Origin: Eledone cirrhosa
Taxonomy: Eukaryota
DNA: 64,000 nt
NCBI GenBank assembly: GCA_964016885.1
Contig: OZ024740.1
Coordinates: 263,128,001-263,192,000 of the forward strand
Direction of reading: 5' to 3'
The notes under the pieces are model-generated. The model was not told the DNA's origin, did not search any database, and saw only the letters and a list, made by a program, of their open reading frames with translations. The translations under genes and the position numbers were made by a program. Shown here one piece after another: positions 7,242 through 60,715 of this stretch; within the stretch, counting starts at the first letter, position 1, and each line of letters starts with the position of its first letter.

Positions 7242-9456
7242 CTACATTTTAAATTTAAATTTATATTTAAACGTTGAGTTTAATCTATGTTTGCAGCAAC
7301 TGAATAAATTTGTCCGTAGATTAAGGGAATTTTTAGATTTTAGTATAAAGAATATCTCCTCTGCGCAGAGGTCACATGTCTCAGAGGATGAATTAAAAGG
7401 AATCCCTCTTGAGACTATATTCCAAGCCGTCGAATATCTAACGTTATCTAGCTTAAGTTGCCAGAGTACGCCTGATAGTGCCGTTGAAGATTTTTTGCTT
7501 GGATCTGTGAAAGAATTCTTCTGGTTATTATAGCGAAGTTTAAATTCCGTCGATGTGGAACCGACGTAGTTAAAAGAATTAGAGTCAGTATTAACATTAC
7601 AATTGTATACTATATTTTTAACTAAGCAGTTGTTATTTAACGGACATTTAGATCTATCTCTACAGTTACATTTGTTAACTTTTATATTATTTATGCTATT
7701 ATCACTAGGTTTTAAGTTCCTATTATTTATTCTATTAATATTTTGTGCTAAATTTTTGGTGGATGAGTAGGTTAATTTAATTGTATGTCTATTGAAAATT
7801 GAGTGATACCTATGTGTTCTAGGGAAGCGATTATCAAGAGCTTTAAAAAATAGTTTAGCGATGTGGGTTTTAATGTTTAGTGAGAAAAGGGGGGGCAAAC
7901 CAAATTATGTTCCTAGTTCTATTTCTTTTTTGGCCTTTGGAATTATTGTAATGCTTTCTATTATAGTTGTTAAGGTTGTTGCCGTAATTAAAATAGTTGT
8001 TATTTTGTTTAGTTTGTCTATCATTATCTATGTACACAATCTTATCAGCATATCCTGCTCTAGCTAATGCTTCATTGTAGTATTGGGCTTTTTCGTCGAA
8101 AATCTTTCTATTCGACGAGATCCTAGAGATACGTTTTTGAACAGAGTTTACTATAGTGTTTTTGACAGATCTGGGGTGGTTAGAGTTAAAGTTGACATAG
8201 TTTAAGTTTTCATTCAACTTGTGAAAAGGATAGTGAAGACATGTGTTGAGATTTAATGTTATATCTAGGAAATTGACTATTCTATGGTTGTTCTCAATTT
8301 CTATTTTAAGATTAAAGTAATTAAAAAATTGTGTAATTTGTTTACATTTTCTATTTAGTTCAGAGTTATTATTATCAATAAGTAAAAGCATGTCATCTCT
8401 ATATAAACCTCCGGTAGTACCAGGTATTTTCCTATGTAGCGAATTGATTAAAAATAAGCCCACAAGGTCAGTTACCTGAGCTGAGTCGGATGATCCCATA
8501 GTAATGTCAAAATTGCTATCTCTATCTGCTCTGGTCCATAGTTGGTCATTAAATTCTATCAAAGTTTTCCTAGCCGATAATATAATATGCATTTCATTGC
8601 TAGTTAGGTCAGTATGTTTGAATGCGTAATTTAGTGCCTTATTTAATAAATTAGGGGTAATAGAAGAATAATAGTTAGCTATATCAAGTTGAATAAACTT
8701 ATTATTATTGTTATATTTAATTTGCTTAAACCACTCAACGACCTCTCCAGTTCCCTTCCACAAGCTCAGGTTAGATAAATAATCCAAGTTCTTAATTTGC
8801 TGTATCACCCTGTCAAGAATGTTTTTGCTTAATTTGCCCAGGTCCGATTTTGATGGTGCGATCAATCTAACTGGCAAGTCATTTTCAAAATTCCTCTTGT
8901 GATCCTTCATATTGATCTTCGGTTTCCTGGGCACGAAAGGTTGTGTTCTGTTCTCAATTTCCAACTCGTGCATTATACAAGATGCTTCGACATTCATTTT
9001 CTCAAGCTCGGCCCTATCTGCTACCTTGTACTTTTTCCTCAGCTCTTTCAGTATGAGGCCATTATACATGTCTTTCTGCATTCCATAGAGGTTGTTGGTC
9101 TTGTCAGATTTCACCAAGATCTTCTCAGTTTTCTCTAAGCTCTCAATGTTATCCTTAATGCCTTTCAGATATTCCTGGCCTTTGAAGTTTCTCTTGAATT
9201 TGACCCCTTGTATGATAGAAATTATATCGTTTTCAAAGTCAGATAAAAGTTTGTTAGGGGGTGGATTTCTTTTAGATTTGAAAACTTTGTTTAAGTCCGA
9301 GACATTTTCATTTATATTAGATTTATCAAAGTGGAATGCTCGCCACCTGATTCTCCTTATAAAAGAGTCAGATTTATCTATTAATTGTTTTATAAAGTCT
9401 TTGTTTCTAGGTAGAGGTATGTCTTTTAAAGAGGAAGTAATCTTAAAGAATTCCAT
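7242..9456 (-). pseudogene. PLE reverse transcriptase + GIY-YIG endonuclease, one frameshift at ~7885-7895
   Basis: RT motifs QLDIANYYSSI, TMGSSDSAQVTDLVG, LYRDD, FLDITL; EN region CNCR..CPL...CL, IVY...YVGST..FKLRY. Removing one base in CCCCCCCTTTT restores IIWFAPPFSLNIKT. Confidence 0.9.
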
Positions 9457-9620
9457 TTTTCCAGTTATAATATAAAGCGCTCAACAGTATTGGAGCAAGA
9501 TACATGGAAAGTTATATTTAAATTGTTGGGTTACAACTAGTAAATATTTATAACTGATATAAAAGCACTCGACAAATATTTGGAGTATATTTACAATATT
9601 AAATAAATGGAAACTATATT

Positions 9621-21735: not shown

Positions 21736-21783
21736 TTCTACAGGACTAGAACTGTTTCATTCTTTAGAAATCATCAGGAATCT
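21733..21783 (-). ncRNA. Minimal type I hammerhead ribozyme (copies at 23806-23856, 32758-32808, 35180-35230)
   Basis: AGATTC-CTGATGA-tTTCTaaAGAAt-GAAACAG ttctagtc CTGTA-GAATCT: perfect 6-bp stem I, 4-bp stem III, GUA cleavage triplet. Confidence 0.75.
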
Positions 21784-23766: not shown

Positions 23767-23808
<42 letters not shown>

Positions 23809-24711: not shown

Positions 24712-24749
<38 letters not shown>

Positions 24750-24786
24750 GAGAGTAAAACAAAGAAGCCTTTAATACATCAAAAGT

Positions 24787-24840
24787 TTTTATTAGCCGAC
24801 AATGTTTCGTCCTGTTAAGGACTCATCAGGGCAATTAAAA
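24787..24840 (-). ncRNA. Type I hammerhead ribozyme in PLE3 pLTR (second copy 29568-29621; inverted mutant copy 30558-30611 +)
   Basis: TTTTAATTGCC-CTGATGA-GTCCT taac AGGAC-GAAACATTGTC-GGCTAATAAAA; GUC cleavage triplet. The inverted copy has GAAT instead of GAAA. Confidence 0.85.
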
Positions 24841-26660
24841 CAACAAGAAGTAATATCGGCAGATACAAGCCGGAAGCTCCGAAGAATATGGAGTGTACAT
24901 ACACTAAAGTCTTGCAAAAATATATAATAAAAATAATAAAAATATATAATAAGAATAACTAAGGATGTATATAACATTAAGAACCATATTACAAATATAG
25001 TCCAAAGCAAATAACCTAGAGCTAAACAAAGGTGGTTATATAGAACAGGAATTATATATAACATAATGTAATATAATATAATACATTATAATAATATACC
25101 TTTACCAACATTAAAATTACAATAAAAATCAAAAGGTACAATATGCACATGTATATATGTGCGCACACGCACACACACGCACACATACAACAATACGCAC
25201 ATCTATCTTCAACTACACAAATTAAACCTTATTAGGAGTTTGAATATAAAAATAAGCATGATAAGAGTGAAAATAATAATAATAATACCAATACATCTAC
25301 CCAATATACATGAGGTAATAATATGATATAATTACGAGAAACACATATAATAAATAATAAACAATAAAATTATATAATCAATATAATAGATAATCCCTGG
25401 TTAATTTACACAAACAATATAGATGTCACAATAATAATATAATAATAATATACATTAACAATGTACTAACATTTACAATAAACAATATATACAAATCGAT
25501 TCATACTGGGTTACAGAGTAAATGAGGAAAAATAAATTATACAATACTCAAAAAACATTAAGATGGTACAGAAAAAATACAGGCATCATGCATGATATAT
25601 AAAGTTTAAATATCATAATGTTACATATAATGAACAGTAAGTAATAAGGATCAATATTACAATACAATATAATATAATGTATTATATAAAATAAATTGAC
25701 ATAAAATAATATATAAATACTTATAATTACAAGGTTAGTAGACAGACATATGTGGATGTGTAAGTAAGTGCCAGGTGTGAATAGTAAATAGTAAATATGA
25801 TGCCCAGTAGTATTTCAAATAAAATATAGAATATAAAATATAGAATAAAATAAATAAATATAATCAACCGGAAATTACAAAACAAAAACAAATATATACA
25901 TTTAGGTCTCACATGCGGTTAAGTAGTTAAGTAAAAACTAAGGAAAACAATCCCTGTAAATGACTCAAAACCCTATTTGATAAATTAATATTAAAAATAT
26001 TTAAGCTATCCAATAAGGTAGTATAATATTAGCTATAGTTTAAGTCATTAAAGTTTATAAACTTTAATGTTTCGTTACAAATGTTTACAAAAAGGAAAGA
26101 AATTTTTTCTTATCATATACATAACGATATCTAAAAAACTGACTTAAGTAGAATTAAGGTAAACTAATGGGGACAGAATTGAAGAAATATATGGAGGATG
26201 CAAAGGGGCATAAAATATAGTCGATATACTATAATAAATAATAGAACGGAGCGTAAAAGAGGGGGGGGGTTCAATATAATCATAGTCAATTTGGAGGGGT
26301 TGACAATAAGTTTATGTGCGCATGTGGGGGAGGGGGGAGGGGGGAGGGGAGGGGGTATCCAAAGATGAATCTGAATAAAAATAAAAATAAAATTAAAAAT
26401 AAAATTAAAAATAAAAATAAAAATAAAAATGAAGATAATAATAAAATAAAGTAAATGGCGTAAAGTATGTAATCTTATATATATTCACAAGGTTTAATAG
26501 TGAACATTTAATGCGTAAGAAGACAGATATGGTACAGTAGCCAAATGATTATGAGAGCTAGAATAAAGAGTCATCAAAAACCAATGATAATAATGATGAT
26601 AATAATAATGTTGGCAAACACAAGAACCTAAACTAAAAAATAAGTAATGGAATATATCTG

Positions 26661-29348
26661 CTAATGGGTACAATTTGTACTACTAGAACGTTTGGGTTTA
26701 TAATAAAAGTAAGAATTAGAAATAGCGTGGAGGTAAGAAGAGAATATCTCAGACTTTCTATTAAGTAAGGATACGCTAGAGAAAATTATAGAGTGTGTCT
26801 CAAGGATACAGAGATTACAAAATTTAGTATGTGTAGAAAGGTGGTTAGAGCGTGCTACTAAACGCCAGTTAAGGCTATATGGTATATAAGCTCCCTTAAG
26901 ATCCCAGATATAATGTGCTAAAGAAGTAGAATTCTTAAACTTAACATGTTTGAAGTTAGAGATATGAGAGTTAAACCTAGTCTTAAAAGTGTTTGAAGTA
27001 GATCCTATATAAGTTCTATTAGAGGAATTAGTTATAACTTCGCAAGCGTAGACAATGTTCTTAGAAAGGCAGTTACCGTTTAAAGGGCAGTTAGCACTCA
27101 CTCTACAATTGCACTTCCGGGTGTTATTGGTTGGTTCGAGTGGTGATGTATTACACGTAGGATTTCTATTAGATAAGGACTGTTCTGGTGGTAAAGCATT
27201 GTCAGATCTGTTCAGACTAGTAGTAGGTAGAGAGGAGAATCCATCCCTAATTTTCCTATTATTAGTGCTAGCTAAATGAGAACTAATATTAGGGGTGGTA
27301 GAGAATGAGAGTTTAATAACATTTTTATTAAAAATACTATGGTATTTATGAGAAGGGGGGAAATTTTTCTCTAAGATAGTGAAGAAAGACCTAGGGATAT
27401 TAGTTGATACATCCTGATTATATGGCGGGTTAAAATAAGTATTTAATCGCCTTCTATTTTTATTCTTACCGACCCTACCTTTATTAAATGTCCCACCATC
27501 GAGACTAGGGTTACTACAAGGATTAGTTAAAGCCACATTCATAGAATCAGCCATAATTTCGTTATCTCTATTATAGTTTCTACCTCCAGTAGATCTGCTT
27601 CTGTCCGGAATCCCTTCAAAAGGATTAGGGCCAATGATAGGATCAGTAGGAGCAACATTATTAGAATAAGATCCAGCAAAACCATCACCAATGTGTGAGC
27701 GCACAGGGGTTTCAACTTGTTTCCTAGAGGTATTATATTTGCTATTACGAGTCAGGTGGGTTAACTTATGGATGGGTTCGGATACACCTATATAATTTTT
27801 ACGGTTACTATATTTGCTACTCCCATTCATGGCCATGTTATGTGATATTATGTTATTATTGTTAAAAGTAAGCGGAGACTTTCTAAGGTTACTATTATTA
27901 TAATGTATTTTACTAGAGTAACCTGAATTTGCTAGGGCATTATTGTAGTACTCCGCATGTTCATTAAATGTTCCTATGTCCTTAGAGAGTGTGGAAATCC
28001 TATTAGGTACACCCTTAATTATAGAGCTTATCATAGACTTAGGGTGGTTAGAATTGGGGCTAACATAAGAAAGAATTTCATTAGGCTTATGGAAGGGTTT
28101 AAAACTATTAGTGACCAAGTCCAAAGTCACATCTAAAAAGTTAACCGCTCTATCATTTCTATCTATCGTGATCGAAAGGTTGTAGCTTTTAAAAAACTTA
28201 TAAAGCTTCTTCTTATTATGTTCTACATTGTTGGTGCTAGAGTTAATTACAAACAATGCATCATCACGATATAGTCCGCCTATAAGGTGCGGGAAGGTAG
28301 CGTATAGTTCATTAAGGAGGAACAACCCAACAAGATCAGTAACCTGGGCCGAATCACTCGAACCCATTGTAACGTCGAAATTATTGGGCGTGCTTTTACG
28401 GGTCCAAAATGTGTCCTCAAATTTAATAATAGTTTTACGGGCTGCTAGTATAATATCTACCTGTGATCGTGTAAGGCTGGACACTCTCATGGCCAACATT
28501 AAAGCTTTATTGAGGAGGATGGGTGAAATTGATGTGTAGTAGGCATCAATATCGAATTGGATAAACTTATTAGATTCAAGTCTATTAATCCCAGAGAACC
28601 AATCTATAACTTCCCTAGTGTTCCCCCATAGGTTAAAATTAACCTTATCCCTAACATCTGGTATAATAAGGTCAAGGATTTTTTTACTGATAATGGCTAT
28701 ATCAGACTTAGAAGGACAGATGAGTCTAACAGAGGGGTTACTAATAAAATCAACCTTATGATCCTTAAGTGTGAAAGTCGGTTCTTGAGGGTAATATGGC
28801 TGGGTATACTTATCGAGGCCGAGGTCAGAGACTATTCTAAGGCCCTCACTATTGATGTGGTTCAAATTCTCAAGCGTAGTTTTTTTATAGTTTCTATATA
28901 ACTCCTTATAAATAAAGTCGCGGTAAGCACTATAGTCCATGGAGTATAGATTCTTAGTCTTATCTGCCGGGACAAGAATGGACTTATTCTCACCGAAACC
29001 CTTAACAATATTTTTAAGTCTGGACTGGAACCTATCAACGTTATTATAATTTCTATGTCTATTATTTGGCCTATACCTAATATTTTTGACCAGAGAGAGT
29101 AAGTCACTTTCAAAACTATCTAATAGAATATTGTGTGGTGGGCTCTTATAAGTTTTGAAGCCGTAGTTATTAAAATTTGTTCTATTCCTGTGGTCCTTCC
29201 TATCCTTATTATTATCGTAGTGGAAAGCACGCCATCTAATCCTTTTTACAAAGGAGTTAACACTAGCTATCAATAGTTTTTCGTAAGTATTCTTAGAGGG
29301 GGTGGGAATATTCTTCAGAGATAAAGGCAGGTAACTCTTTGTTAGCAT
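26661..29348 (-). CDS. PLE polyprotein: reverse transcriptase + C-terminal GIY-YIG endonuclease (895 aa)
   Basis: Uninterrupted ORF; ADKT, FDIDAYYTSI, TMGSSDSAQ, LYRDD, FLDVTL, SNHP, YFNPPY, CNCR..CPL.G.CL, IVY...YIGST..FKTRF..H, CNLC..E. Clearly homologous to PLE1. Confidence 0.93.
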   Translation of the reverse strand: MLTKSYLPLSLKNIPTPSKNTYEKLLIASVNSFVKRIRWRAFHYDNNKDRKDHRNRTNFNNYGFKTYKSPPHNILLDSFESDLLSLVKNIRYRPNNRHRNYNNVDRFQSRLKNIVKGFGENKSILVPADKTKNLYSMDYSAYRDFIYKELYRNYKKTTLENLNHINSEGLRIVSDLGLDKYTQPYYPQEPTFTLKDHKVDFISNPSVRLICPSKSDIAIISKKILDLIIPDVRDKVNFNLWGNTREVIDWFSGINRLESNKFIQFDIDAYYTSISPILLNKALMLAMRVSSLTRSQVDIILAARKTIIKFEDTFWTRKSTPNNFDVTMGSSDSAQVTDLVGLFLLNELYATFPHLIGGLYRDDALFVINSSTNNVEHNKKKLYKFFKSYNLSITIDRNDRAVNFLDVTLDLVTNSFKPFHKPNEILSYVSPNSNHPKSMISSIIKGVPNRISTLSKDIGTFNEHAEYYNNALANSGYSSKIHYNNSNLRKSPLTFNNNNIISHNMAMNGSSKYSNRKNYIGVSEPIHKLTHLTRNSKYNTSRKQVETPVRSHIGDGFAGSYSNNVAPTDPIIGPNPFEGIPDRSRSTGGRNYNRDNEIMADSMNVALTNPCSNPSLDGGTFNKGRVGKNKNRRRLNTYFNPPYNQDVSTNIPRSFFTILEKNFPPSHKYHSIFNKNVIKLSFSTTPNISSHLASTNNRKIRDGFSSLPTTSLNRSDNALPPEQSLSNRNPTCNTSPLEPTNNTRKCNCRVSANCPLNGNCLSKNIVYACEVITNSSNRTYIGSTSNTFKTRFNSHISNFKHVKFKNSTSLAHYIWDLKGAYIPYSLNWRLVARSNHLSTHTKFCNLCILETHSIIFSSVSLLNRKSEIFSSYLHAISNSYFYYKPKRSSSTNCTH

Positions 29349-30065
29349 ACTGTCAGATAAATATATATAAAGGCCAAAATACCAGTATATATGTGAGTAA
29401 GCTCAACCGGTCGGGAGCAGTGACAAGGATTAAAATACCGGAGCGTGTTGGAGTTAAACACCCTCTTCGTATTATAGAAATGACAGTAAAAGGTATAGCT
29501 CAATGCAGTTAAACAGAGCCGAAAAATTAAGAGAGTAAAACAAACAAGCCTTTAATACATCAAAAGTTTTTATTAGCCGACAATGTTTCGTCCTATTAAG
29601 GACTCATCAGGGCAATTAAAACAACAAGAAGTAATATCGGCAGATACAAGCCGGAAGCTCCGAAGAATATGGAGTGTACATACACTAAAGTCTTGCAAAA
29701 ATATATAATAGAAATAATAAAAATATATAATAAGAATAACTAAGGATGTATATAACATTAAGAACCATATTACAAATATAGTCCAAAGCAAATAACCTAG
29801 AGCTAAACAAAGGTGGTTATATAGAGCAAGAATTATATATAACACAATGTAATATAATATAATAAATTATAATAATATACCTTTACCAACATTAAAATAA
29901 AAATCAAAATCAAAAGGTACAATATGCACATGTATATATGTGCGCACACGTACACACACACACACATACAACAATACGCACATGTATCTTCAACTACACA
30001 AATTAAACCTTATTAGGAGTTTGAATATAAAAATAAGCATGATAAGAGTGAAAATAATAATAATA

Positions 30066-30244
30066 ATTGTTTCTACTTTTGGCACAAGGCCAGCAATTAC
30101 CCAGTGTATTACTGGTACTTTATTTTATCGACCCCGTAAGGATGAAAGGCAAAGTTAACCTCGGCGGGATTTGAACTCAGAATGGCAAGGGCCGTAACTC
30201 TATGCGTCAAAGCATGGCGTCCGACCATCTACCGATACTGCCAA
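30066..30244 (-). mobile_element. Nin/Deu-domain SINE inserted in the (AAT)n of the 5' pLTR of PLE3
   Basis: Same family as 15505-16470; absent from the 3' pLTR (~25272-25287). Confidence 0.85.
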
Positions 30245-30753
30245 ATAATAATAATAATACCAATACATCTACCCAATATACATGAGGTAATGAATATGAT
30301 ATAATTACAAGAAAAACATATAATAAATAATAAACAATAAAATTATATAATTCAATATAATAGATAATCCCCGGTTAATTTACACAAACAATATAGATGT
30401 CAAAATAATAATATAATAATAATATATATTAACAATGTACTAACTTTTACAATAAACAATATATACAAATCGATTCATAGTGGGTTACAGAGTAAATGAG
30501 GAAAAATAAATTATACAATACTCAAAAAACATTATCTGCCGATATTACTTCTTGTTGTTTTAATTGCCCTGATGAGTCCTTAATAGGACGAATCATTGTC
30601 GGCTAATAAAAACTTTTGATGTATTAAAGGCTTCTTTGTTTTACTCTCTTAATTTTTCGGCTCTGTTTAACTGCATTGAGCTATACCTTTTACTGTCATT
30701 TCTATAATACGAAGATGGTGTTTAACTCCAACACGCTCCGGTATTTTAATCCT

Positions 30754-35182: not shown

Positions 35183-36005
35183 TTCTACAGGACTACAACT
35201 GTTTCATTCTTTAGAAATCATCAGGAATCTGGCTTACTAAAAATAAATATATATATATATATAATAATAAAGTATATATCCCTACAAGCGTCCAGGGACA
35301 CATGTAATGTCCAATCATATGCCATTGTGGTTGAATGGCTGGTTAATAAATTAACGAGCCAGAACATATATAATCAAGGTTTAGCAAAAAAGAAAAAGTT
35401 TCGAAATAAATTTCAAAAAATTCACTGTACTCACTATGGTTACGTTTACCGAATCGGTTTCGAGCCTCAAAAATAAATGGACAGTCATTGCGGCCTTCCA
35501 TTGAAAAGATAAACTCTCTTCAGAAGGTTCTTTTCACTCGGAAAATATAAAATTCCCGAGTTCAAATTACGAACTGGCGCTACTTAAAATTTTTCCCGAG
35601 ATGAGAATGAATGATGTGGAAGCAATTCTGTCCAGTGCCGTGTGTAAAGACAGAAGTAGAGGCAGGGAGATCAGTCTACTACCACTATAAATAGCAGCAG
35701 TCAAAACGACCAAATTTTATCTCGACCAAGAGGAGGATAATAATAATAAAGTATATATCACTACACGCAAAAAGCGTCCAGGGACACATGTATTGTCCAA
35801 CCATATGCCAATGTGGTTCAATGGCAGTTTAATAAGTTAAGGAGCCAAAACATATATAAACAAGGTTTAGCAAATAAGAAAAAGTTTCAAAATAAATTTC
35901 AAAAGATTCACTGTTCTCACTATGGTTACCTTTACCGAATCGGTTTCGAGTCACAAAAATAAATGGACAGTCCTTACGGCCTTCCATTGAAAAGATAAAT
36001 AAATA

Positions 36006-45700: not shown

Positions 45701-48426
45701 AGCAATAGAAAAAATTAGAGCAGAGGGGGAACTAGTTAGAAAAAAATAGACGAGGCGCTTATCAAAGGCATCGCGACCGACGAACCTGCGGCGAAATTGG
45801 CCCTTGACCAATTCTTCAATCAAAGCACAAAGGATGCGTTGTCAGAGCTAGGGTGCGTGCTCTCAGACAGGAGGGGTCGAAAGCCGTTCAATGGGCCCGA
45901 GTGGCGGAGGCGCGTCGTGGCAACAAAGCCACGATCCGGTGTTTGGTGGACCATGACGGGCGCATGCTACTCGATCCAGGGCAAATGTGTGAAGCTTTTC
46001 AGCGACACTTCTCTCAGCTGTTCGAGGGGACCAGCGGGGCGGATCGAGGGATGGACATTAGTGTCTCCCTCGATGGACTGCCACGGCTCTCGGACACTGA
46101 GGCGGAGTCTTGTGAAAAGCCGATAACAGCAGCTGAAATACGGAAGGCAATGACTGACTGCACAAGTGGTAAATCGCCTGGTTTGAATGGTCTGCCCTAT
46201 AAACTTTACGTACAGATGCCAGACTTGTTCGGAGGCCTATTGGCGGACGTCTACTGCAACTGGCAACAGAATAGGAGAATTCCCAGCTCTGTGAGCCAAG
46301 GAGCGCCAGCGCTGCTGAGAAAAGGTCCGAACGAGGGGGATAACATAGATAATTTCAGGCCCACAACTCTGCTAAACACAGAGTTCAATATTTTGGCCAA
46401 GGTGCTAGCAAAGAGTTTGGCGCTTGTCGTTGGTGGTCTGGTGGGAGAGGCGCAGACATGCGCCATTCCAGACAGATCCATCCACGACAACCTCCACCTC
46501 ATTCGATACATCGTGGAGAGGGTAGCTAGGGAACCTGGCACCGGTGGGTCCTTGATCAATTTAGATCAGTCGAAAGCTTTCGATAGGGTCGACCATCTTT
46601 GTCTGGCCGCAGTCCTGATGGCGGCTGGCTTTGGGCTCGTCTTCAGAGGCTGGATCGCTGCCATGCCCAGCGACATCTGCTCTGTGGTGGGAGTGAACGG
46701 TCACCTTTCGGAACCGTTCAACATCATGCGCTCGGTACGCCAAGGATGTCACCTCTCGTCCCTCCTGTACGTATTGACTCTCGAGCCATTACTGCACAAA
46801 CTGGAGACGTTGAGGGGGATCCCGCGCGAACTAGGATACGGAAGATCCGTGTCAGAATATGCGGACGATGTCACCATAGTGGTGTCGAACGCCAAACACT
46901 TCGCGGCGATCGGCACTACACTAAGAGAATACGAAGCGGTGACAGGAGCAATGATCAACCAGCAAAGTTGGTGGGCCTGCTGCTCGGCACATGGAGAGGA
47001 AGGTCCATGTCGTTCAATAGCGTCGTTGGGCGCTGGACGGACGGACCGGTTAAATTGCTAGGGGTCTGGTTCGGTCCGGACCTCCAGATGGACAAAAACT
47101 GGGACGTGATAACGAGCAGGGTGGCTTCTCTCACTCAGAAATGGACGGAGAGGAAGCTATCCCTGAAAGGTCGAGCGGGGGTGGCTAACGCGTACATCGT
47201 GTCCGCCATCTATTACCGCCTGACCGTCGTGCCTTGACCTAAGCCTCGCCTGACTGCGCTGGAGAGTTTGCTCTTTCGCTTTTAGTGGAACGGACGCGCT
47301 CCGATGGTCAGGCATTCCATCTGCTGTCAACACCTGCTACGTGGAGGGCTGGCCATGCAGTGGCTGATGATGCGCAGACACGCGCTCGCTACGACATCTC
47401 CACCTATTCCTCGACGTTGATCAGGTGTGGCTGCCGTTTGCTAGACGCGTCTTTCCTCAGCTAGTCTCCATGACGGAGCTGCAGTCCTGGGTCAAGCGAA
47501 GACCGAGAGGGAGCGCTTGGAGACTGGAATGTGTTCAGGCGCTCACAGCCCTCGACCAATCGGGCAATGTGAACGGTGGAAAGACCACCTTGGCGTTCTA
47601 TAGAGGATTAGTGGAGGGGAAGAGCGACGACGTACTTGGAGAATATTTAGGCGTTGACGCAAATCAACTAGCCAATCTCTTCGGAAGAACTTTCGGGCCG
47701 GGGCCTATGGACAACTTCCAGAAATCCCTGGCGTGGCAGTGCTACCGAGGAGCTTTGCCAGTTCGGGATAAACTCTACAGGCATGGAGGTGCCGTCAGCC
47801 GGGCATGTCCGAGATGCGCGCAGGGCGATGAAACCGTCCTGCACGCACTCGTCCAGTGTCTGAACATTGCTGACTTGTGGGTATATATCGAACACCTGCT
47901 GTCGCGTGTAGGACGGACCCATCTATCAGCTGAGTCCATCGTGAGGATTTCCCCACCCTCTTCCTTTAGCCGGGAAGGACAGGCAATTTTTATCTGTCTG
48001 GTGATGCCCTGATTAACCTTTTCAAATTTCATTTAAAAAGTAAAATCAGGGTAGAGAGGGAAGTGCTCTCTTCCCAGCATTTTGTTGAAAGATGGGTGAG
48101 AGAGGCAAGAATGGCCTGTGTGAATGGGCCTACTCTCAGTATGTGCCTGTAAATTGAAGGTGGAAAACTGGGAGAGGGCACTTGCCCTGGTGGTCAGGGT
48201 AACCGTGTCTTTTTAATGGGCTTTCTCCACGAATGTCCCTCGGAAGTGTCCCCCCTATTGGGTAATTTTTCATTGTTTATTTTTTTATGTCACATCCCCT
48301 GTTTTTTGTTTTTTTACACGCATAAATGCCCAGTTGTATAGTCCTGTATTGTCCTGTACTGTCCTTAATGTCTACTTTGTGTAAACCCTTGTGGTTAATA
48401 AAGAAAGCATTATTATTATTATTATT
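42724..48426 (+). mobile_element. Decayed L1/Tx1-like LINE (copy 1), full length
   Basis: ORF1 relics with CVVCGEGTHLKAFC; ORF2 relics (44842-48150) highly similar to 50773-54192; AATAAA plus (TTA)n tail; preceded by (ATT)n. Confidence 0.9.
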
Positions 48427-48640: not shown

Positions 48641-50737
48641 ATGGCTACGAAAAAGAAATTTCATACGTCACTCCCACTCATTCCGTCTTCTTCTTCCTCA
48701 ATCATCACTACAGCAGAGAGAAGATTGTCTCTCTCCCTCCCTTCTTTAAATGTGTCTCTCTCCCTCCCTTCTCTTTCGCAAGTGACGAAAGAAAAGAAAA
48801 GTCTCGTGCAAAGCGTGCAAAGTTTTTCCACGACGACGACGACAGCGACGAAACAGGTGTGCGGGAAATACGAAAACCCAGTTCATTCGTCTGACGTCAG
48901 GAATAATAGCAGTAGCAGCCGTAATAACAACAGCAACAGTGACAATGAAAACAACAGTAGCAGCCGCAACAGCATCACCAGCAGCATAAAGAACAACAGC
49001 ATTAGCAGCAGCAACACCAACAACAACCACAGCAACAGCGGCGGAGGCAGTAGTCGTAGTACCTGCAGCAACAACAAAAGTACCAGCAGCTCTGACGACA
49101 ACAACAACAGCAGAGACAAACCAATCTCATTTGCAGGTATTGCGAAAAACTTGGAAACAATCCTCATAACAAATGAGGAATTAGAGGAAGCGAAGAAGAT
49201 GGTGACAAAGAACGGACACCGAGCAATCTGCAAGGCAGCGAAAAATTTTTTCGAAACCCAAGAGCACTGTACGGTCACGTACCGTACAGTAAGTACAAAA
49301 TCCCGTAGGGTGGAAAGAGCCACAGAGGCCCAAATACAAAAAGCCTTGGGGTCTGTGTGGCAGAGGAAAACGCACATCACCCGAGGCAAAAAATACGCCA
49401 CCGTAGACGTACTTTTTGCCACACCCCAGGAGGCAAAGGCCCAATCAGTAGTGACCCTAAGGAGCGAGGAAATGGTGTTGGTGCCCTCCTACTGCGGGCA
49501 AAAAATTGTGAGGGTCAAACTGACCCACGTCCCCCCCGGAATGACCCCTTCTTGGCTGGCCGCGTCTGTCCTCGTCGGAATCGAGGACAAAACAACTGTA
49601 CTGCAAGTACAGAAAAAAGTAAGAGAAGATTGGGTCGGCTCCTCCATTGAGATGCTAATCCAAACCAACCAGGAGTGCATCGAAGCTATCCCGGATGTGA
49701 TAGACTTCGATAACGGCACTCAACTGCCCATAAGTGTTGAGGGCAAACGCCCGAAATGCTTTCGCTGTGGATCGAAGACTCACCTCAGGGCCTTCTGCAA
49801 CGAGAAGACCCTGAGAAAGGAGAAAACCCCCCTCCTTCCGAATCCGGCTCCACGGCTACCAGCAACAGGACAAGCGGCAACCAGGAACGATAGGTCCGTG
49901 GCACCCATACCCACTCCACGGAAATCAAAGACAGCAGCAGCAGTGGAAATATTAACAACAACAACAGCAATACCAAATGCAGCTGCAACAGAGACTCCAG
50001 TGCAAACATCACCAACAACAACAAGTGAAAGAGTGGAGCTGGTACCCCTCCCCGACCTTACAGAATCAGACATGGAGTGTGAGGTGGGAGAGGGATGGCA
50101 AAAGGTCGCAAGAAGGCACAAACGCAGAAGCAGCGCATCGTCGCCTTTGAAAAGGGAGGAAAGAAATGAGAAAAGGGTAAAGTCTACTGCAAAGAGACCC
50201 ACAGCAGCAACACCACCAACACCATCACCACCCACACCAGCACCACCATCACCACCGGCGACAACCCCACCGCCAACAACACCTTCAACACCACCACCAC
50301 AAGCACCAACATCGCAAACACAACAACAAAACACACACACCCAGCAACAACGACAAGAAAATAGCAGAACCACACCCCACCCCCAGAAAAACAAATGCAC
50401 GGCAATAAACACACACAACAAGAAACTAATGACTTACATAATTGAACACACAGACATTTCACAACAGGACTACATAATACCAGCACCAATCAAAACGCCA
50501 ACTAACATAAGACTGCTAAAAATAGCACAGAAACAATACACAAACATTAAAACGAAATTCCCCAACGCAGTTGGTGATTTCAGGGACCTAGGAGGAACCA
50601 TCAATCGAAGAGTATATTCAGACATTCTCTTAGAAGAGCCGACGACCAGCCGAAGGGACGATTCAACGGTCCCTTCACCAGACGATCAAGTGAAAAGGGA
50701 TGTAAAAACCATCCCTCCTCTACCAAAAGTACGGTAA
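48641..50737 (+). CDS. LINE ORF1 (698 aa), gag-like nucleic-acid binding protein with CCHC knuckle
   Basis: CFRCGSKTHLRAFC, S/N-rich N-terminus, GWQKVARRHKRR, P/T-rich region; directly upstream of ORF2. Confidence 0.85.
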   Translation: MATKKKFHTSLPLIPSSSSSIITTAERRLSLSLPSLNVSLSLPSLSQVTKEKKSLVQSVQSFSTTTTTATKQVCGKYENPVHSSDVRNNSSSSRNNNSNSDNENNSSSRNSITSSIKNNSISSSNTNNNHSNSGGGSSRSTCSNNKSTSSSDDNNNSRDKPISFAGIAKNLETILITNEELEEAKKMVTKNGHRAICKAAKNFFETQEHCTVTYRTVSTKSRRVERATEAQIQKALGSVWQRKTHITRGKKYATVDVLFATPQEAKAQSVVTLRSEEMVLVPSYCGQKIVRVKLTHVPPGMTPSWLAASVLVGIEDKTTVLQVQKKVREDWVGSSIEMLIQTNQECIEAIPDVIDFDNGTQLPISVEGKRPKCFRCGSKTHLRAFCNEKTLRKEKTPLLPNPAPRLPATGQAATRNDRSVAPIPTPRKSKTAAAVEILTTTTAIPNAAATETPVQTSPTTTSERVELVPLPDLTESDMECEVGEGWQKVARRHKRRSSASSPLKREERNEKRVKSTAKRPTAATPPTPSPPTPAPPSPPATTPPPTTPSTPPPQAPTSQTQQQNTHTQQQRQENSRTTPHPQKNKCTAINTHNKKLMTYIIEHTDISQQDYIIPAPIKTPTNIRLLKIAQKQYTNIKTKFPNAVGDFRDLGGTINRRVYSDILLEEPTTSRRDDSTVPSPDDQVKRDVKTIPPLPKVR

Positions 50738-50772
50738 GTGGTCTTTCCCATCTTTTCCACTCTATTTTAAAC

Positions 50773-53700
50773 ATGACCTCACTCAGAATAGGCAGCATAA
50801 ATGCGCGTGGCTTGGGGTCGTCATGGAAGCAGGGTCACCTGCTCAACGACCTCAGGTCACTAAACATAGATGTAGTGGCCATCAGCGAGACCAGAATCTC
50901 CGAAGCACGGGCCTTCGCACCGATCTTCGGCGGTTACGATGTGTACGCATCTCCCAGCCGTCCTGGATCGGGTGGAGGAGTTGCTGTGCTTTTTCGGAGA
51001 GGTTTGGATCTCGCCATACGGGCCATCTTCCTGGACCCAGAGGGTAAGCTGGTGGTGCTGGACGTGACCAGCGGAGACGGGCAAGCTTTCAGGCTAGTGG
51101 CCGTCTATGCCCCGACAGGAGCAGGGCGGCCTGATTTCTTCCGGCGTCTGGAGACCTTTCTTGGAACGTCCCGCTCTTTAGTGTTAGTGGGCGACTGGAA
51201 CGGGATCTTAGATGCACGCTGGGACTGTGTGGGATTAGCGGATAGGGGTGGAGGGTGCAAGAGCCTCACCAACCTGCTCAGGCGTTTTGAACTGTCTGAC
51301 AGGTACCGATTGGATTTCCCGAATGTGCCAATGTGGACTTGGACAAACCGCATAGGGTCATCCAGATCATATCTAGATAGAGTATTTTGTAGGGAAATAG
51401 ATAGGTCTAGCATAGGCTGTCCACAATTCAAGATAGTCAGCTACACGGACCACAAATTCGTGACCTGTGTGCTTGACTTAGATAGGCTTCATAGACAAGG
51501 ACCCGGCTACTGGAAGCTAAACGCGTCCTTACCAGCGCGCAAGGCCTACAGAGACCGGATTAGCGAACTAGTTAAGCGGGCGTTGACGGGGGCCATCGTC
51601 AACAACAAGTGGTGGTTTGCTCTGAAAAGAGCGATTAGAATAGAATCGATTAGGTTTAGTAAGGCTTTAGCAATAGAGAAAAATAGAGCAGAGGGAGAAC
51701 TAGTTAGAAAATTAGACGAGGCGCTTAGCAAAGGCATTGCGACCGACGTGCTTGCGGCGAAATTGGCCCTTGACCAATTCTTCAATGCAAAGCACGAAGG
51801 CTGCGTTGTCAGAGCTAGGGTGCGTGCTCTCAGACACGAGGGGACGAAAGCCGTTCAATGGGCCCGAGTGGCGGAGGCGCGTCGTGGCAACAAAGCCACG
51901 ATCCGGTCTTTGGTGGACCACGACGGGCGCATGCTACTCGATCCCGGGCAAATGTGTGAAGCTTTTCAGCGACACTTCGCTCAGCTGTTCGGGGGCAGCG
52001 GGGGGCCGGGTAGAGGGATGGACTTTAGTGTCTACCTCGACGGACTGCCGCGGCTCTCGGCCACTGAGGCGAAGTGTTGCGAAAAGCCGATAACAGCCGC
52101 TGAAGTAAAGGAGGCAATGACTGGCTGCACAAGGGGTAAATCGCCTGGTTTGGATGGTCTGCCCTATGAACTTTACGTACAGATGCCAGACTTGTTCGGA
52201 GGCCTCTTAGCGGACGTCTACTGCAACTGGCAACAGAACGGGAGAATTCCCAGTTCTGTGAGCCGAGGAGCGGTGGCACTGCTGAGAAAGGATCCGAACA
52301 AGGGGGATAACATAGACAATTTCCGGCCCATAACTCTGCTAAACACAGAGTTTAAGATTTTGGCCAAGGTGCTAGCAAAGAGGTTGGCGCTTGTCGTTGG
52401 TGGTCTGGTGGGAGAGGCGCAGACATGCGCCATTCCCGACAGATCCATCCACGACAACCTCCACCTCATGCGATACATCGTAGAGAGGGTAGCTAGGGAA
52501 CCTGGCACGGGTGTGTCCTTGATCAATTTAGATCAGTCGAAAGCTTTCGATAGGGTCGACCATCGTTACCTAGCGGCAGTCCTGAGGGCGGCTGGCTTTG
52601 GGCCCGTCTTCAGAGGCTGGATCGCTGCCATGCACAGCGACATCTGCTCTGTGGTGAGAGTGAACGGTCACCTGTCGGAACCGTTCAACATCATGCGCTC
52701 GGTCCGCCAAGGATGTCCCCTCTCGTCCCTCTTGTACGTATTGACTCTCGAGCCATTACTGCACAAACTGGAGACGTTGAGGGGAGTCCCGCGCGAACTA
52801 GGATGCGGAAGATCCGTGTCAGCATATGCGGACGATGTCACCGTAGTGGTGTCGAACGCCAAACACATCGAGGCGATCGGCACTACACTAAGAGAATACG
52901 AAGCGGTGACAGGAGCAATGATCAACCAGGAAAAGTCAGTGGGCCTGCAGCTCGGCACCTGGAGAGGCAGGTCCATGCCGTCCAACAGCGTCGTCGGGCG
53001 CTGGACGGACGGACCGGTTAAATTGCTAGGGGTCTGGTTCGGTCCGGACCTCCAGACGGACAAAAACTGGGACGAGGTGACGAGCAGGGTGGCTTCTCTC
53101 ACCCAGAAATGGGCGGAGAGGAAGCTATCCCTGAAAGGTCGAGCGGAGGTGGCTAACGCGTACATCGCGTCTGTCATCTGCTACCGCCTAACCGTCGTAC
53201 CTTGTCCTAAGCCTCGCCTGACTGCGCTGGAGCGTTTGCTCTTTCGCTTTTTGTGGAAGGGACGTGCTCCGATGGTCAGGCGGTCCATCTGTTGTCAACA
53301 CCCGCTACGTGGAGGGCTGGGCATGCCGTGGCTGATGATGCGCAGGCACGCGCTCAGGCTACGACATCTCCACCTCTTCCTCGACGGTGATCAGGTGTGG
53401 TCGCCGTTTGCTAGACGCGTTTTTCCCCAGCTCGTTTCCTTGACGGAGCTGCAGTCCTGGGTCAAGCGAAGACCGAGAGGGAGCGCCTGGAGACTGGAAT
53501 GTCTTCAGGCGCTCACAGCCCTCGACCAATCGGGCAATGTGATCGGTGGAAACTCCACCTCGGCGTTCTATAGAGGATTAGTGGAGGGGAAGAGCGACGA
53601 CGTACTTGGGGAAACTCTAGGCGTCGACGAAAATCAACTAGCCAATCTCTTCGGAAGAACTTTCGGGCCAGGGCCTATGGACAACTTCCAGAAATCTCTG

Positions 53701-54192
53701 GCCTGGCAGTGCTACCGAGGAGCCTTGCCAGTTCGGGATAAACTCTACAGGCATGGAGGTGCCGTCAGCCGGGCATGTCCGAGATGCGCGCAGGGCGACG
53801 AAACCGTCCTGCAAACACTCGTCCAGTGTCCGAAAATTGCTGACTTGTGGGTTTATGTCGAACACCTGCTGTCGCGTTTAGGACGGATCCAGCTATCATC
53901 TGAGTCTATCGTGAGGATTGCCCCGCCCTCCTCCTTTAGCCGGGAAGGGCAGGCAGTTTTTATCTGTCTGGTGGCCATGGCGAAAGAGATAGTATGGTGG
54001 ACACGTTTGAAAGGGCTGAAGACGAGCACTTACCTCTTCGGTGATGCTCTGATTGACTTTTTCAAATTTCATTTGAAAAGGAAAATCAGAGTAGAGAGGG
54101 AAGTGCTCTCTTCCCAGCATTTTGTTGAAAGATGGGTGAGAGAAGCAAGAATGGCCCGAGTGAATGGGCCGACTCTGAGTATATATCTGTAA
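50773..54192 (+). CDS. LINE ORF2 (1139 aa): APE endonuclease + reverse transcriptase + C-terminal zinc finger
   Basis: APE motifs SINARGL, ISET, VYAPT, GDWN, SYLDR, TDH; RT motifs KSPGLDG, FRPITLLN, LDQSKAFDRV, VRQGCPLS, YADD; C-terminal CPRC...ETVLQTLVQC. Confidence 0.95.
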   Translation: MTSLRIGSINARGLGSSWKQGHLLNDLRSLNIDVVAISETRISEARAFAPIFGGYDVYASPSRPGSGGGVAVLFRRGLDLAIRAIFLDPEGKLVVLDVTSGDGQAFRLVAVYAPTGAGRPDFFRRLETFLGTSRSLVLVGDWNGILDARWDCVGLADRGGGCKSLTNLLRRFELSDRYRLDFPNVPMWTWTNRIGSSRSYLDRVFCREIDRSSIGCPQFKIVSYTDHKFVTCVLDLDRLHRQGPGYWKLNASLPARKAYRDRISELVKRALTGAIVNNKWWFALKRAIRIESIRFSKALAIEKNRAEGELVRKLDEALSKGIATDVLAAKLALDQFFNAKHEGCVVRARVRALRHEGTKAVQWARVAEARRGNKATIRSLVDHDGRMLLDPGQMCEAFQRHFAQLFGGSGGPGRGMDFSVYLDGLPRLSATEAKCCEKPITAAEVKEAMTGCTRGKSPGLDGLPYELYVQMPDLFGGLLADVYCNWQQNGRIPSSVSRGAVALLRKDPNKGDNIDNFRPITLLNTEFKILAKVLAKRLALVVGGLVGEAQTCAIPDRSIHDNLHLMRYIVERVAREPGTGVSLINLDQSKAFDRVDHRYLAAVLRAAGFGPVFRGWIAAMHSDICSVVRVNGHLSEPFNIMRSVRQGCPLSSLLYVLTLEPLLHKLETLRGVPRELGCGRSVSAYADDVTVVVSNAKHIEAIGTTLREYEAVTGAMINQEKSVGLQLGTWRGRSMPSNSVVGRWTDGPVKLLGVWFGPDLQTDKNWDEVTSRVASLTQKWAERKLSLKGRAEVANAYIASVICYRLTVVPCPKPRLTALERLLFRFLWKGRAPMVRRSICCQHPLRGGLGMPWLMMRRHALRLRHLHLFLDGDQVWSPFARRVFPQLVSLTELQSWVKRRPRGSAWRLECLQALTALDQSGNVIGGNSTSAFYRGLVEGKSDDVLGETLGVDENQLANLFGRTFGPGPMDNFQKSLAWQCYRGALPVRDKLYRHGGAVSRACPRCAQGDETVLQTLVQCPKIADLWVYVEHLLSRLGRIQLSSESIVRIAPPSSFSREGQAVFICLVAMAKEIVWWTRLKGLKTSTYLFGDALIDFFKFHLKRKIRVEREVLSSQHFVERWVREARMARVNGPTLSIYL

Positions 54193-57076: not shown

Positions 57077-57136
<60 letters not shown>

Positions 57137-57141
<5 letters not shown>

Positions 57142-57429
57142 CTTTCTTCCCCATTTCCTTAACATGTTCAACATCACCAACATTTTACACCAATACACAT
57201 TCCCCCCTTTGATAATGCATAAAATGCTGAAACCGATAATAGACAATTATTAAATATATAACTAAATAAATAAATGCCATCGTTAATTAATAAATAAAAT
57301 AACTAATACGTTAACACTTCACACAAAGTAAAATATTTTGTTTTAAGCATTTTCTAACCCAGAAAAAAGAGAAAAATAAAAGGAAAAAACTATATTTTTC
57401 TTCCTAATAATCGTCCTTTTCTCCCTATC

Positions 57430-57432
<3 letters not shown>
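57137..57432 (+). repeat. Solo copy of the PLE2 terminal repeat; partial inverted copy at ~60198-60302
   Basis: Similar to 21295-21600. Confidence 0.75.
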
Positions 57433-57482
<50 letters not shown>

Positions 57483-57488
<6 letters not shown>

Positions 57489-60167
57489 ATAAATGCTCTG
57501 AAATAGCGATATATATGTGAGTATAGACATAGAATATTCGAAAATATTCTGTATGTTTATAATAAACATTTTGAAGACCTAATCGCTATAGAATAGAATA
57601 CGTCACGTATTACAATTAGATTCTCGATAAAAGCAAGGGAAGTAATCTACGCGTTTCATTCTTGTTAGAATTCATCAGGACTACATATCCAGTGCTTTTA
57701 TCGAGAATGACACAGCTAGAGACTTATAGAATACTTAGCTGTGTACTGGAACTGGTTTGAAAGAGCGGTTGCCGGTCCGGCAGAAATTAGAAATTGGAAT
57801 AAATGCTCTGAAATAGCGATATATATGTGAGTATAGACATAGAATATTCGAAAATATTCTGTATGTTTATAATAAACATTTTGAAGACCTAATCGCTATA
57901 GAATAGAATACGTCACGTATTACAATTAGATTCTCGATAAAAGCAAGGGAAGTAATCTACGCGTTTCATTCTTGTTAGAATTCATCAGGACTACATATCC
58001 AGTGCTTTTATCGAGAATGACACAGCTAGAGACTTATAGAATACTTAGCTGTGTACTGGAACTGGTTTGAAAGAGCGGTTGCCGGTCCGGCAGAAATTAG
58101 AAATTGGAATAAATGCTCTGAAATAGCGATATATATGTGAGTATAGACATAGAATATTCGAAAATATTCTGTATGTTTATAATAAACATTTTGAAGACCT
58201 AATCGCTATAGAATAGAATACGTCACGTATTACAATTAGATTCTCGATAAAAGCAAGGGAAGTAATCTACGCGTTTCATTCTTGTTAGAATTCATCAGGA
58301 CTACATATCCAGTGCTTTTATCGAGAATGACACAGCTAGAGACTTATAGAATACTTAGCTGTGTACTGGAACTGGTTTGAAAGAGCGGTTGCCGGTCCGG
58401 CAGAAATTAGAAATTGGAATAAATGCTCTGAAATAGCGATATATATGTGAGTATAGACATAGAATATTCGAAAATATTCTGTATGTTTATAATAAACATT
58501 TTGAAGACCTAATCGCTATAGAATAGAATACGTCACGTATTACAATTAGATTCTCGATAAAAGCAAGGGAAGTAATCTACGCGTTTCATTCTTGTTAGAA
58601 TTCATCAGGACTACATATCCAGTGCTTTTATCGAGAATGACACAGCTAGAGACTTATAGAATACTTAGCTGTGTACTGGAACTGGTTTGAAAGAGCGGTT
58701 GCCGGTCCGGCAGAAATTAGAAATTGGAATAAATGCTCTGAAATAGCGATATATATGTGAGTATAGACATAGAATATTCGAAAATATTCTGTATGTTTAT
58801 AATAAACATTTTGAAGACCTAATCGCTATAGAATAGAATACGTCACGTATTACAATTAGATTCTCGATAAAAGCAAGGGAAGTAATCTACGCGTTTCATT
58901 CTTGTTAGAATTCATCAGGACTACATATCCAGTGCTTTTATCGAGAATGACACAGCTAGAGACTTATAGAATACTTAGCTGTGTACTGGAACTGGTTTGA
59001 AAGAGCGGTTGCCGGTCCGGCAGAAATTAGAAATTGGAATAAATGCTCTGAAATAGCGATATATATGTGAGTATAGACATAGAATATTCGAAAATATTCT
59101 GTATGTTTATAATAAACATTTTGAAGACCTAATCGCTATAGAATAGAATACGTCACGTATTACAATTAGATTCTCGATAAAAGCAAGGGAAGTAATCTAC
59201 GCGTTTCATTCTTGTTAGAATATTCTATGTCTATACTCACATATATATCGCTATTTCAGAGCATTTATTCCAATTTCTAATTTCTGCCGGACCGGCAACC
59301 GCTCTTTCAAACCAGTTCCAGTACACAGCTAAGTATTCTATAAGTCTCTAGCTGTGTCATTCTCGATAAAAGCACTGGATATGTAGTCCTGATGAATTCT
59401 AACAAGAATGAAACGCGTAGATTACTTCCCTTGCTTTTATCGAGAATCTAATTGTAATACGTGACGTATTCTATTCTATAGCGATTAGGTCTTCAAAATG
59501 TTTATTATAAACATACAGAATATTTTCGAATATTCTATGTCTATACTCACATATATATCGCTATTTCAGAGCATTTATTCCAATTTCTAATTTCTGCCGG
59601 ACCGGCAACCGCTCTTTCAAACCAGTTCCAGTACACAGCTAAGTATTCTATAAGTCTCTAGCTGTGTCATTCTCGATAAAAGCACTGGATATGTAGTCCT
59701 GATGAATTCTAACAAGAATGAAACGCGTAGATTACTTCCCTTGCTTTTATCGAGAATCTAATTGTAATACGTGACGTATTCTATTCTATAGCGATTAGGT
59801 CTTCAAAATGTTTATTATAAACATACAGAATATTTTCGAATATTCTATGTCTATACTCACATATATATCGCTATTTCAGAGCATTTATTCCAATTTCTAA
59901 TTTCTGCCGGACCGGCAACCGCTCTTTCAAACCAGTTCCAGTACACAGCTAAGTATTCTATAAGTCTCTAGCTGTGTCATTCTCGATAAAAGCACTGGAT
60001 ATGTAGTCCTGATGAATTCTAACAAGAATGAAACGCGTAGATTACTTCCCTTGCTTTTATCGAGAATCTAATTGTAATACGTGACGTATTCTATTCTATA
60101 GCGATTAGGTCTTCAAAATGTTTATTATAAACATACAGAATATTTTCGAATATTCTATGTCTATACT

Positions 60168-60177
<10 letters not shown>
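57483..60177. repeat. 310-bp hammerhead-containing tandem array (retrozyme-like): ~5.6 units (57483-59221), then ~3.1 inverted units (59218-60177)
   Basis: TTGGAATAAATG recurs at 57484, 57794, 58104, 58414, 58724, 59034; units look identical; flanked by (TA)n. Confidence 0.95.
59359..59447 (+). ncRNA. Type I hammerhead ribozyme of the 310-bp unit (also 59669-59757, 59979-60067 +; 57620-57708, 57930-58018, 58240-58328, 58550-58638, 58860-58948 -)
   Basis: ATTCTCGATAAAAGCA ctggatat GTAGTC-CTGATGA-ATTCT aaca AGAAT-GAAACGCGTA-GATTAC ttccct TGCTTTTATCGAGAAT; predicted cleavage after 59419. Confidence 0.9.
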
Positions 60178-60202
<25 letters not shown>

Positions 60203-60715
60203 ATAGGGAGAAAAAGACGACTATTGAGAAGAAAAAAATATTTTCTTCCCTTTACTTCTTCTCTTTTTTATGGGTTAGAAAATGTTTAAAACAAAATATT
60301 TCTATATATATATATATATATATACACTCAAACTCAAGAGTATAAACAAAGAAAGGACAAGACAACGAATGGAAACAAAACAAAACGAAAAACTAAAATA
60401 CAAACAAAAGACATAGAACTGCATGGTTATCGGCCGTTGTGATGGACTTGAGCAGTTTCAACCCCAAACAACTGTACTGCTGGTCCGGGGTCATAGTGCC
60501 TGACATAAGCCAAATGTTGTCCAGTAGAGTAAGCGACGAGAGACAAAATATTAATTTACAGATATTAAGCTACAAAACACAGAATTTTGTGTGACGCCAG
60601 GGAAAAATCTGGTGCACGGGATATGAATGAAAAAAAATGTAAACCTTTGCAAGATAAACATGTAGGTCACATTAGTAGATAAACGTAAGAAAATTGGCAA
60701 AGAAAGGACAACACA

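Follow-up and report, generated by a model that had tools for sequence, protein, structure and literature searches.

Non-LTR retrozymes were defined by Cervera and de la Pena (2020, PMC7229834), who reported RNA circles in coral, mussel and axolotl and proposed, as a hypothesis, that circRNAs serve as templates and that Penelope-like elements (PLEs) mobilize them. In that work and in Li et al. (2026, bioRxiv 10.64898/2026.07.22.740005), metazoan members are described as head-to-tail tandems of non-coding 150-450-bp units with one type I hammerhead each, a GC content under 50% and a self-paired fold. Li et al. (2026) also report co-occurrence with PLEs and pLTR homology, and favor local tandem expansion; in their in vitro assays, one of nine Xenopus retrozyme dimers cleaved. 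Insertions of Naiad and Hydra PLEs carry an inverted 5'-truncated copy and, in many cases at just one of the ends, a 30-40-bp tail, and they lie in (TA)n targets; their insertion mechanism is called undefined by the same authors (Craig et al. 2021, PMC8557442). The protein of the anole Poseidon PLE, a predicted dimer, nicks or cuts AT-rich DNA and extends both strands, and its cDNA starts at two adjacent internal RNA sites that bound the tail (Frangieh et al. 2024, PMC11167929).

We analyzed a stretch of 64,000 nucleotides from Eledone cirrhosa (the window), in which a 310-bp hammerhead unit is repeated without a single difference between any of the copies, as had been predicted from the letters of the window. 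The original prediction took these copies for a single tandem array. We found instead two arms of opposite orientation that meet head-to-head (Table 1), and this inversion, absent from the prediction, is the most informative feature of the locus. Units were numbered from window position 59420, the first base after the predicted hammerhead cut. The 26-bp tail at the left end of the array matches the PLE tail lying between two reverse-transcription start sites. The flanks outside the (TA)n tracts are mutually inverted copies, 90% similar across 131 bp, of an older repeat that is dispersed, likewise (TA)n-ended and present at least six further times in the window; the array is inserted between two (TA)n ends of this repeat.

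Table 1. Coordinates of the array, its hammerheads and neighboring elements in the window
Feature	Position	Strand	Details
Left arm	57483..59221	minus (ribozyme strand)	5.61 units of 310 bp, all identical
Left-arm outer end	57483		RNA 3' end = unit position 165 (site B)
Right arm	59218..60178	plus (ribozyme strand)	3.10 units, all identical
Right-arm outer end	60178		RNA 3' end = site A (unit position 139; imprecise owing to shared TA bases)
Head-to-head junction	59218..59221		4-bp overlap of arms; inner ends = unit positions 287 and 109
Tail	57483..57508	minus	26 bp, unit positions 140-165, left end only
(TA)n target, left	57433..57484
(TA)n target, right	60171..60198
Older repeat in flanks	57133-57460 and 60171-60301		mutually inverted copies
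Type I hammerhead	59359..59447	plus	core 59389-59419, stem I (16-bp extension, 59359-59374 pairing with 59432-59447), 5-bp stem II, minimal palindromic stem III
Other hammerhead cores	59699, 60009	plus
Other hammerhead cores	57678, 57988, 58298, 58608, 58918	minus
PLE with Hydra-clade motifs (P0001)	24747..30753	minus	913-codon frame 26661-29402
P0001 hammerheads	29579-29610 and 24798-24829		inverted arm ends at 30753
Second Hydra-type PLE (P0002)	7242..9480	minus	split over two frames in the window
Second (TA)n-flanked element, ~330 bp	21732-22060, 23803-24120, 32775-32802, 35197-35224	minus	type I hammerhead
LINE-type RT frames	45808-47061 and 50578-54192	plus	RVT_1, zf-RVT; second adds an endonuclease domain

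The unit measures 310 bp, with a GC content of 34.5%. Each of the eight complete units holds a complete hammerhead with an intact core (three on the plus and five on the minus strand), and one further core is interrupted by the arm junction. The 16-bp extension of stem I, the predicted cut after GUA at 59419 and all four additional hairpins listed in the original prediction were recovered, the hairpins in the predicted fold of the unit; its palindromic stem III was found as well, reduced to a short palindrome. Newt and axolotl hammerheads have a similarly weak palindromic stem III and cleave as dimers (PMC7229834). The Rfam covariance-model check that had been suggested returned nothing at the gathering threshold; the best match, Hammerhead_HH9, aligned to the unit over the full length of the model, with a score of 23 bits against a cut-off of 52 (E 0.003). 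Searches of the unit detected neither a hammerhead core on its antisense strand nor a pol III A or B box. As a linear molecule the unit has a predicted fold more stable than 100 of 100 shuffled sequences (z -4.4), and as a circle it reaches z -4.1, with equally stable shuffles in 0 of 50. The expected absence of an ORF held up, with 30 codons for the longest ATG frame when four joined units were scanned; without an ORF, the unit is to be regarded as a passenger and not as an autonomous PLE. The outer array ends pass directly into (TA)n, and there are no LTRs.

Variation among copies respects this structure in most cases. Fixed changes within predicted stems keep pairing in 9 of 11 cases and none affects the invariant core bases, while a free core position varies in 19 loci. 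The most common haplotype opens the basal pair of stem II (64 loci), and the base of stem II is likewise open in one axolotl motif (PMC7229834). With its non-coding tandem units, single type I hammerhead, low GC content and self-paired fold, the element resembles the metazoan non-LTR retrozymes (PMC7229834; 10.64898/2026.07.22.740005) and, on every sequence feature tested, is one of them.

To place the array in its family, we searched the 3.0-Gb assembly. A pattern in which the unit gives way to (TA)n close to position 165 (the B end) had 819 matches on the plus strand, and its reversed control had none. Because the minus-strand count of B ends is inflated by a variable gap, we doubled the plus-strand number to ~1,640 insertions. 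The other (A) end, searched in one form only, gave 334 + 342 = 676 pattern matches. From the doubled B-end count and a mean insert size of 3.07 kb, the arithmetic yields ~1,600 dispersed insertions and about 5 Mb for the family, so that dispersed copies in (TA)n, one of the predicted properties, occur genome-wide and not at a single locus. The exact variant of the window is a minority haplotype with 113 candidate places.

A total of 117 insertions were analyzed in three sets. Set 1 comprised 41 insertions, namely the window, 39 places found by identity to the window and one older adjacent copy, and is partly biased toward long arrays. Set 2 was drawn from the first 37 B-end matches of contig C1, 36 of which had not already been sampled, and set 3 consisted of 40 consecutive A-end matches on C1, beyond the loci already sampled. 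One-unit differences inside loci amounted to 197 in 364,130 bases, and with so few of them the burst must be very young; the predicted young retrozyme agrees with this and with the sequence features tested.

Two arms were present in 108 of the 117 insertions. Three of the nine single-armed ones are broken by an N gap or by the edge of the fetched sequence, so the inverted copy is a feature of 108 of 114 informative insertions. In all 108 two-armed insertions the minus arm lies on the left and the plus arm on the right, with the ribozyme-strand 3' ends pointing outward, a uniformity that is expected when antisense cDNA is primed from both 3' ends of a cleaved target. The (TA)n threshold was reached at 218 of 224 outer ends, and the remaining six begin with shorter TA runs.

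The outer ends fall into two zones of the unit. Zone A ends lie mostly at 130 and 139 (range 115-139) and zone B ends mostly at 165 and 167 (range 163-172). One A end (~126-139) is combined with one B end (~163-172) in 107 of 108 two-armed insertions. This coupling was seen in 37 of 38 loci of set 1, which were not chosen by their ends, and also held for the partner end in set 2, chosen by the B end (A in 33/33), and in set 3, chosen by the A end (B in 37/37). Five end assignments (L066, L071, L076, L097 and L086) were set by hand, since a nearby mutation or the edge of the fetched sequence had misled the script. The exception, L036, has ends at 139 and 115, and its arms also differ in haplotype. 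The spacing from A to B is 24-48 nt, with modes at 35 and 26 (n=65). Site A overlaps a TA-like (AU) run of the unit, and many A ends stop earlier, at 126-131. An older relative of the family (L050:1177-2037) has 17 fixed differences, yet it is two-armed with A and B ends and its arms share variants; the end rule therefore predates the recent burst.

The inner ends behave differently from the outer ones. They are scattered along the unit (n=140; Rayleigh p 0.35, chi-square p 0.04), so that of the arrays of varying phase that had been anticipated, only the variation of the inner ends was found, the outer ends being at two fixed positions. Junctions could be scored in 98 of 107 loci, with filler bases in 25 and blunt or overlapping arms in 73; overlaps of at least 2 nt occurred in 44 of these 73, against 13.6 expected. 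Arm lengths within a locus correlate weakly and inconsistently (rho 0.07, n=65; rho 0.26, p 0.03, n=68), and this correlation was discarded as an indicator of simultaneous synthesis.

Some loci and data sets depart from the simple dispersed form. At G000:C14:25.02-25.32 Mb (L181-L192) the unit recurs on one strand within a larger amplified block, in which some pieces have diverged; this cluster is a secondary, satellite-like amplification. The long arrays L082, L086, L087 and L156 contain mosaic variants spanning several units, a pattern typical of tandem amplification at a later stage. In runs X4, X5 and X6, by their codes from other organisms, the unit appears as one 340-base contig with 2-3 differences and a depth of 18-34, and could come from relatives, diet or contamination; because a DNA tandem assembles in the same way, we did not count this contig as a circle.

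We then compared variants between arms and loci. The 70 fully covered loci of sets 2 and 3 hold 26 haplotypes, 18 of them seen once, and the arms of one locus share their haplotype in 63 of 69 cases, compared with a chance value of 0.142 when the arms come from different loci. With the sets combined, strict agreement of the arms was found in 99 of 107 loci. Among the eight flagged loci, six show single differences at a site that one arm covers once, and L036 and L099 are the only two with real disagreements. Thirteen private variants, each limited to a single locus, occur in all covering units of both arms, up to 21/21. Haplotypes shared by both arms and these private variants support the monomer, circle-like step that had been placed in the life cycle. 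From such sequence comparisons, a single template molecule for both arms appears likely; the matching arms could also be explained by one active source locus per germ cell.

The copies cross the predicted cut site 1,206 times. Stray variants there number two (3.8 expected), and of 196 inner ends not one falls at unit positions 1-3, where no pile-up is seen. Because neither errors nor ends are enriched at the cut site, a cut linear monomer is rejected as the template, as is a linear monomer copied with template jumps. We infer that the template behaved like a monomer circle. Two loci do not fit a monomer circle and point to an occasional multimer template or to gene conversion: L127 has a one-unit variant at the matching template place in both arms, and in L157 such a variant is shared between the arms one unit apart. 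In the remainder, 78 of 80 testable one-unit variants (L036, L086 and L099 excluded), the variant is not shared between arms, a test that is weak if most variants arose after insertion.

Several further details of the variants were recorded. At one stem I site of L099, the B arm has A in its four outer units and G in its two inner units, and the A arm has G in all seven; if a change of template took place while copying was under way, the B arm was made first in this one case. One-base insertions two bases past the predicted cut, present in all units of both arms in L070, L077, L130 and L132, are possibly scars of circle ligation or repair. Relative to the window unit, fixed variants are A>G at 11 sites and T>C at 2, an excess that could reflect RNA editing or selection on stems; its polarity is uncertain, and it was not used as proof.

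Two PLEs lie in the window, 28 and 48 kb from the array. The translations of P0001 and P0002 contain RWK-like and DKT motifs, a CxCX5C linker and, at the C terminus, GIY-YIG, and both elements target (TA)n; their assignment to the Hydra type was made by reading motifs against the published description. Pfam searches with P0001 and P0002 and a solved-structure search with P0001 gave no match, and among their protein-atlas neighbors GIY-YIG, RVT_1 and HTH_animal are annotated on some members. P0001 ends in (TA)n, 52 and 153 nt beyond the ribozyme cut, and has 95,121 candidate places in the genome, with open frames in many of the 50 that were scored. The P0002 family is young, with copies 95-99% identical and many 745-codon open frames elsewhere. 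Both ends were available for 12 of 20 P0002 loci and, counted from the hammerhead-like core, all 12 pair an end at +107 with one at +188 to +193; seven of the remaining eight show one of these two standard ends and one ends elsewhere. As all 12 obey the either-or rule, the rule is common to an autonomous PLE and the 310-bp family. The end spacings of the two tested PLE families are 86 and ~100 nt, versus ~35 nt in the 310-bp family.

Against 27 loci of these two PLE families, the unit had no significant match (best E 0.24), and in this it differs from the Xenopus retrozyme families, which have pLTR homology (Li et al. 2026, 10.64898/2026.07.22.740005). Besides the two families compared, there are tens of thousands of PLE candidates in the genome. 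A search for the same hammerhead with an altered stem III gave 31 pattern matches, and the 20 inspected were all copies of the unit, with no PLE among them. Mobilization by PLEs, as suggested in the original prediction, is likely in view of the PLE-type ends; the PLEs of the window are of a suitable type, but neither family has sequence in common with the unit. The two LINE-type frames upstream showed no link to the array. The second, ~330-bp element of the window ends 8 nt past a type I hammerhead whose stem III is complete (4 bp) and whose stem II resembles that of the array; its four copies in the window sit in a larger composite repeat with tRNA-like copies.

Metazoan retrozymes have been described as head-to-tail tandems, whereas nearly all insertions of the family studied here are two-armed, with coupled fixed ends in (TA)n (PMC7229834; 10.64898/2026.07.22.740005). 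Inverted arms, tails and (TA)n targets are absent from both main texts, and the supplements might show such loci; the main text of PMC7229834 lacks the words "inverted", "orientation" and "microsatellite", and that of 10.64898/2026.07.22.740005 lacks "tail" and "orientation" and has "inverted" only in a reference title. Passages of a 2024 review (PMC11722881) have nothing on a two-armed shape. Titles and abstract openings, a search that lay mostly outside the subscription literature, gave no description of a two-armed retrozyme architecture.

The closest resemblance is to insertions of Hydra-clade PLEs, which share the inverted copy at the 5' end, the one-ended tail, the (TA)n target and hammerheads near the ends (PMC8557442). 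The 310-bp family differs from them in having no ORF, in that each of the two arms copies one 310-nt unit over many turns, and in that the inversion is near-universal, compared with frequent in PLEs (PMC8557442). Because of this multi-turn copying, every locus reveals its template and the two start sites. The anole Poseidon PLE likewise uses two start sites, and the spacing of 24-48 nt seen here fits its tail; in vitro, however, it showed no strand difference in start site, as opposed to different sites in 107/108 insertions here, and its template was an uncut linear RNA, as opposed to the circle-like template here (PMC11167929).

A further parallel is provided by the L1 retrotransposon. In twin priming, reportedly proposed by Ostertag and Kazazian in 2001, one L1 RNA is said to be primed by both target ends, giving a 5' inversion and a join by microhomology. 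Twin-primed L1 insertions have a poly(A) end, a target duplication and non-overlapping segments. The 310-bp family is alike in that both target ends would prime, in the inversion and in the microhomology joins; it is unlike L1 in the lack of poly(A), in the absence of a visible target duplication (any would be masked by (TA)n), in its fixed second site and in arms that repeat the same sequence many times. As both arms cover the same sequence repeatedly, a single pass along a linear RNA is insufficient to account for them.

Taken together, the array represents a single insertion from a young family of 310-nt hammerhead repeats, and we consider it likely that it was made by a PLE reverse transcriptase that would prime at either end of a broken (TA)n tract and go many times round a predicted monomer circle; the enzyme was probably that of a Hydra-clade PLE. 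By analogy with known retrozymes, the hammerhead would cleave array transcripts, probably in dimeric form, and ligation would close a 310-nt circle. A PLE RT-GIY-YIG protein, likely acting as a dimer, would cut both strands of the (TA)n in which the insertions are found. Presumably by priming, one 3' end would start cDNA at ~165 with little pairing and the other at ~130-139, in the AU run of the RNA, which would give the end positions and the coupling observed. Both cDNAs would then run on through the cut site, in keeping with the median of 3-5 and maximum of ~23 units per arm that we observed. These cDNAs of the same polarity would be joined by repair through the 2-4 nt of microhomology or short filler present at the junctions, and second strands would then be filled in. 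In a minority of events, an uncut multimer may have been the template. The single rolling-circle cDNA of the original prediction gives way here to two opposite cDNAs per insertion, with outer ends at two fixed positions. As a tentative extension, about which we are divided, one PLE dimer may hold both cut target ends on one 310-nt circle, at sites ~35 nt apart, so that both subunits copy it repeatedly.

PLE twin priming could instead have acted on an uncut linear multimer, with the hammerhead incidental and haplotypes fixed by occasional monomers or by homogenization of the source. The anole PLE inserts uncut RNA in vitro, with no need for cleavage (PMC11167929), long single-orientation blocks that might be source arrays exist (L082, L156 and the C14 cluster), a clean cut site is expected on a multimer too, and the one-unit variant shared at the matching place in L127 would follow directly. 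We nevertheless regard this as unlikely: such a template would require frequent monomer bottlenecks to yield 18 of 26 haplotypes seen once and each fixed in all units, arrays should shrink with every round whereas arms reach 13.6 perfect units in the youngest haplotype, and the one-unit variants unshared between arms (78/80) argue in the same direction, weakly if most arose after insertion. A single primed cDNA that folds back or switches to an antisense copy, its second end being captured on (TA)n through an AU-rich patch, would explain why site A overlaps a TA-like run and why some junctions lie in hairpins or in the long stem, as in L069 with its 16-nt overlap. Under this scheme the second arm could not exceed the first, yet the longer arm may be either one (31 versus 34 of 65; 32/68 in a second count), which excludes fold-back on the first cDNA. 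Symmetry of the inner phases is at chance (14/98 within 20 nt versus 13 expected), the antisense strand has no hammerhead core, and the many A ends at 126-131 fall short of the TA run; we consider the whole scheme very improbable.

An origin from DNA only, by rolling-circle copying or by capture of circular extrachromosomal DNA at (TA)n breaks, or by satellite expansion through unequal exchange, suits the few long arrays with mosaic multi-unit variants (L156, L086, L087, L082). A double-stranded template has no strand preference, however, and polarity is the same in 108/108 insertions; the ends are fixed and coupled like those of the resident PLE, and the fixed changes are compatible with how the ribozyme strand folds, so that such an origin is no less improbable than fold-back. 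Chimeric fold-back reads or collapsed repeats in the assembly are hardly credible as a source of the pattern. The window's own junction is unbridged among the short-read contigs listed for X1-X3 (688 further pieces lie outside that list), but more than 100 loci have distinct junctions, flanks and asymmetric arms and still follow one strict end rule, and short-read contigs of another sample leave the unit and enter (TA)n at positions 167 and 170, which belong to site B.

Nearly every insertion of this family bears the full and strict PLE signature, with arms that copy one variant for many turns, and this is what is new here. It bears on which elements mobilize animal retrozymes and on the circle as template, questions left open in the main texts of PMC7229834 and 10.64898/2026.07.22.740005, and also on the origin of tandem and inverted PLE insertions and of their one-sided tail, left open in PMC8557442. 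Strand, the two start sites, turn number and template variant can be read from each of the ~1,600 young insertions. As the either-or end rule holds for a resident autonomous PLE (12/12), it constrains the mechanism of PLEs in general, and the RNA of the unit, non-coding, 310 nt long and mapped for two start sites, offers a minimal substrate for in vitro work and for finding the recognition signal of the PLE reverse transcriptase. If twin priming on a rolling circle is the true mechanism, the tail and the 5' inversion of PLEs would be the obligatory product of a two-site geometry, and ribozyme circRNAs of animals would be actual templates of genomic insertion.
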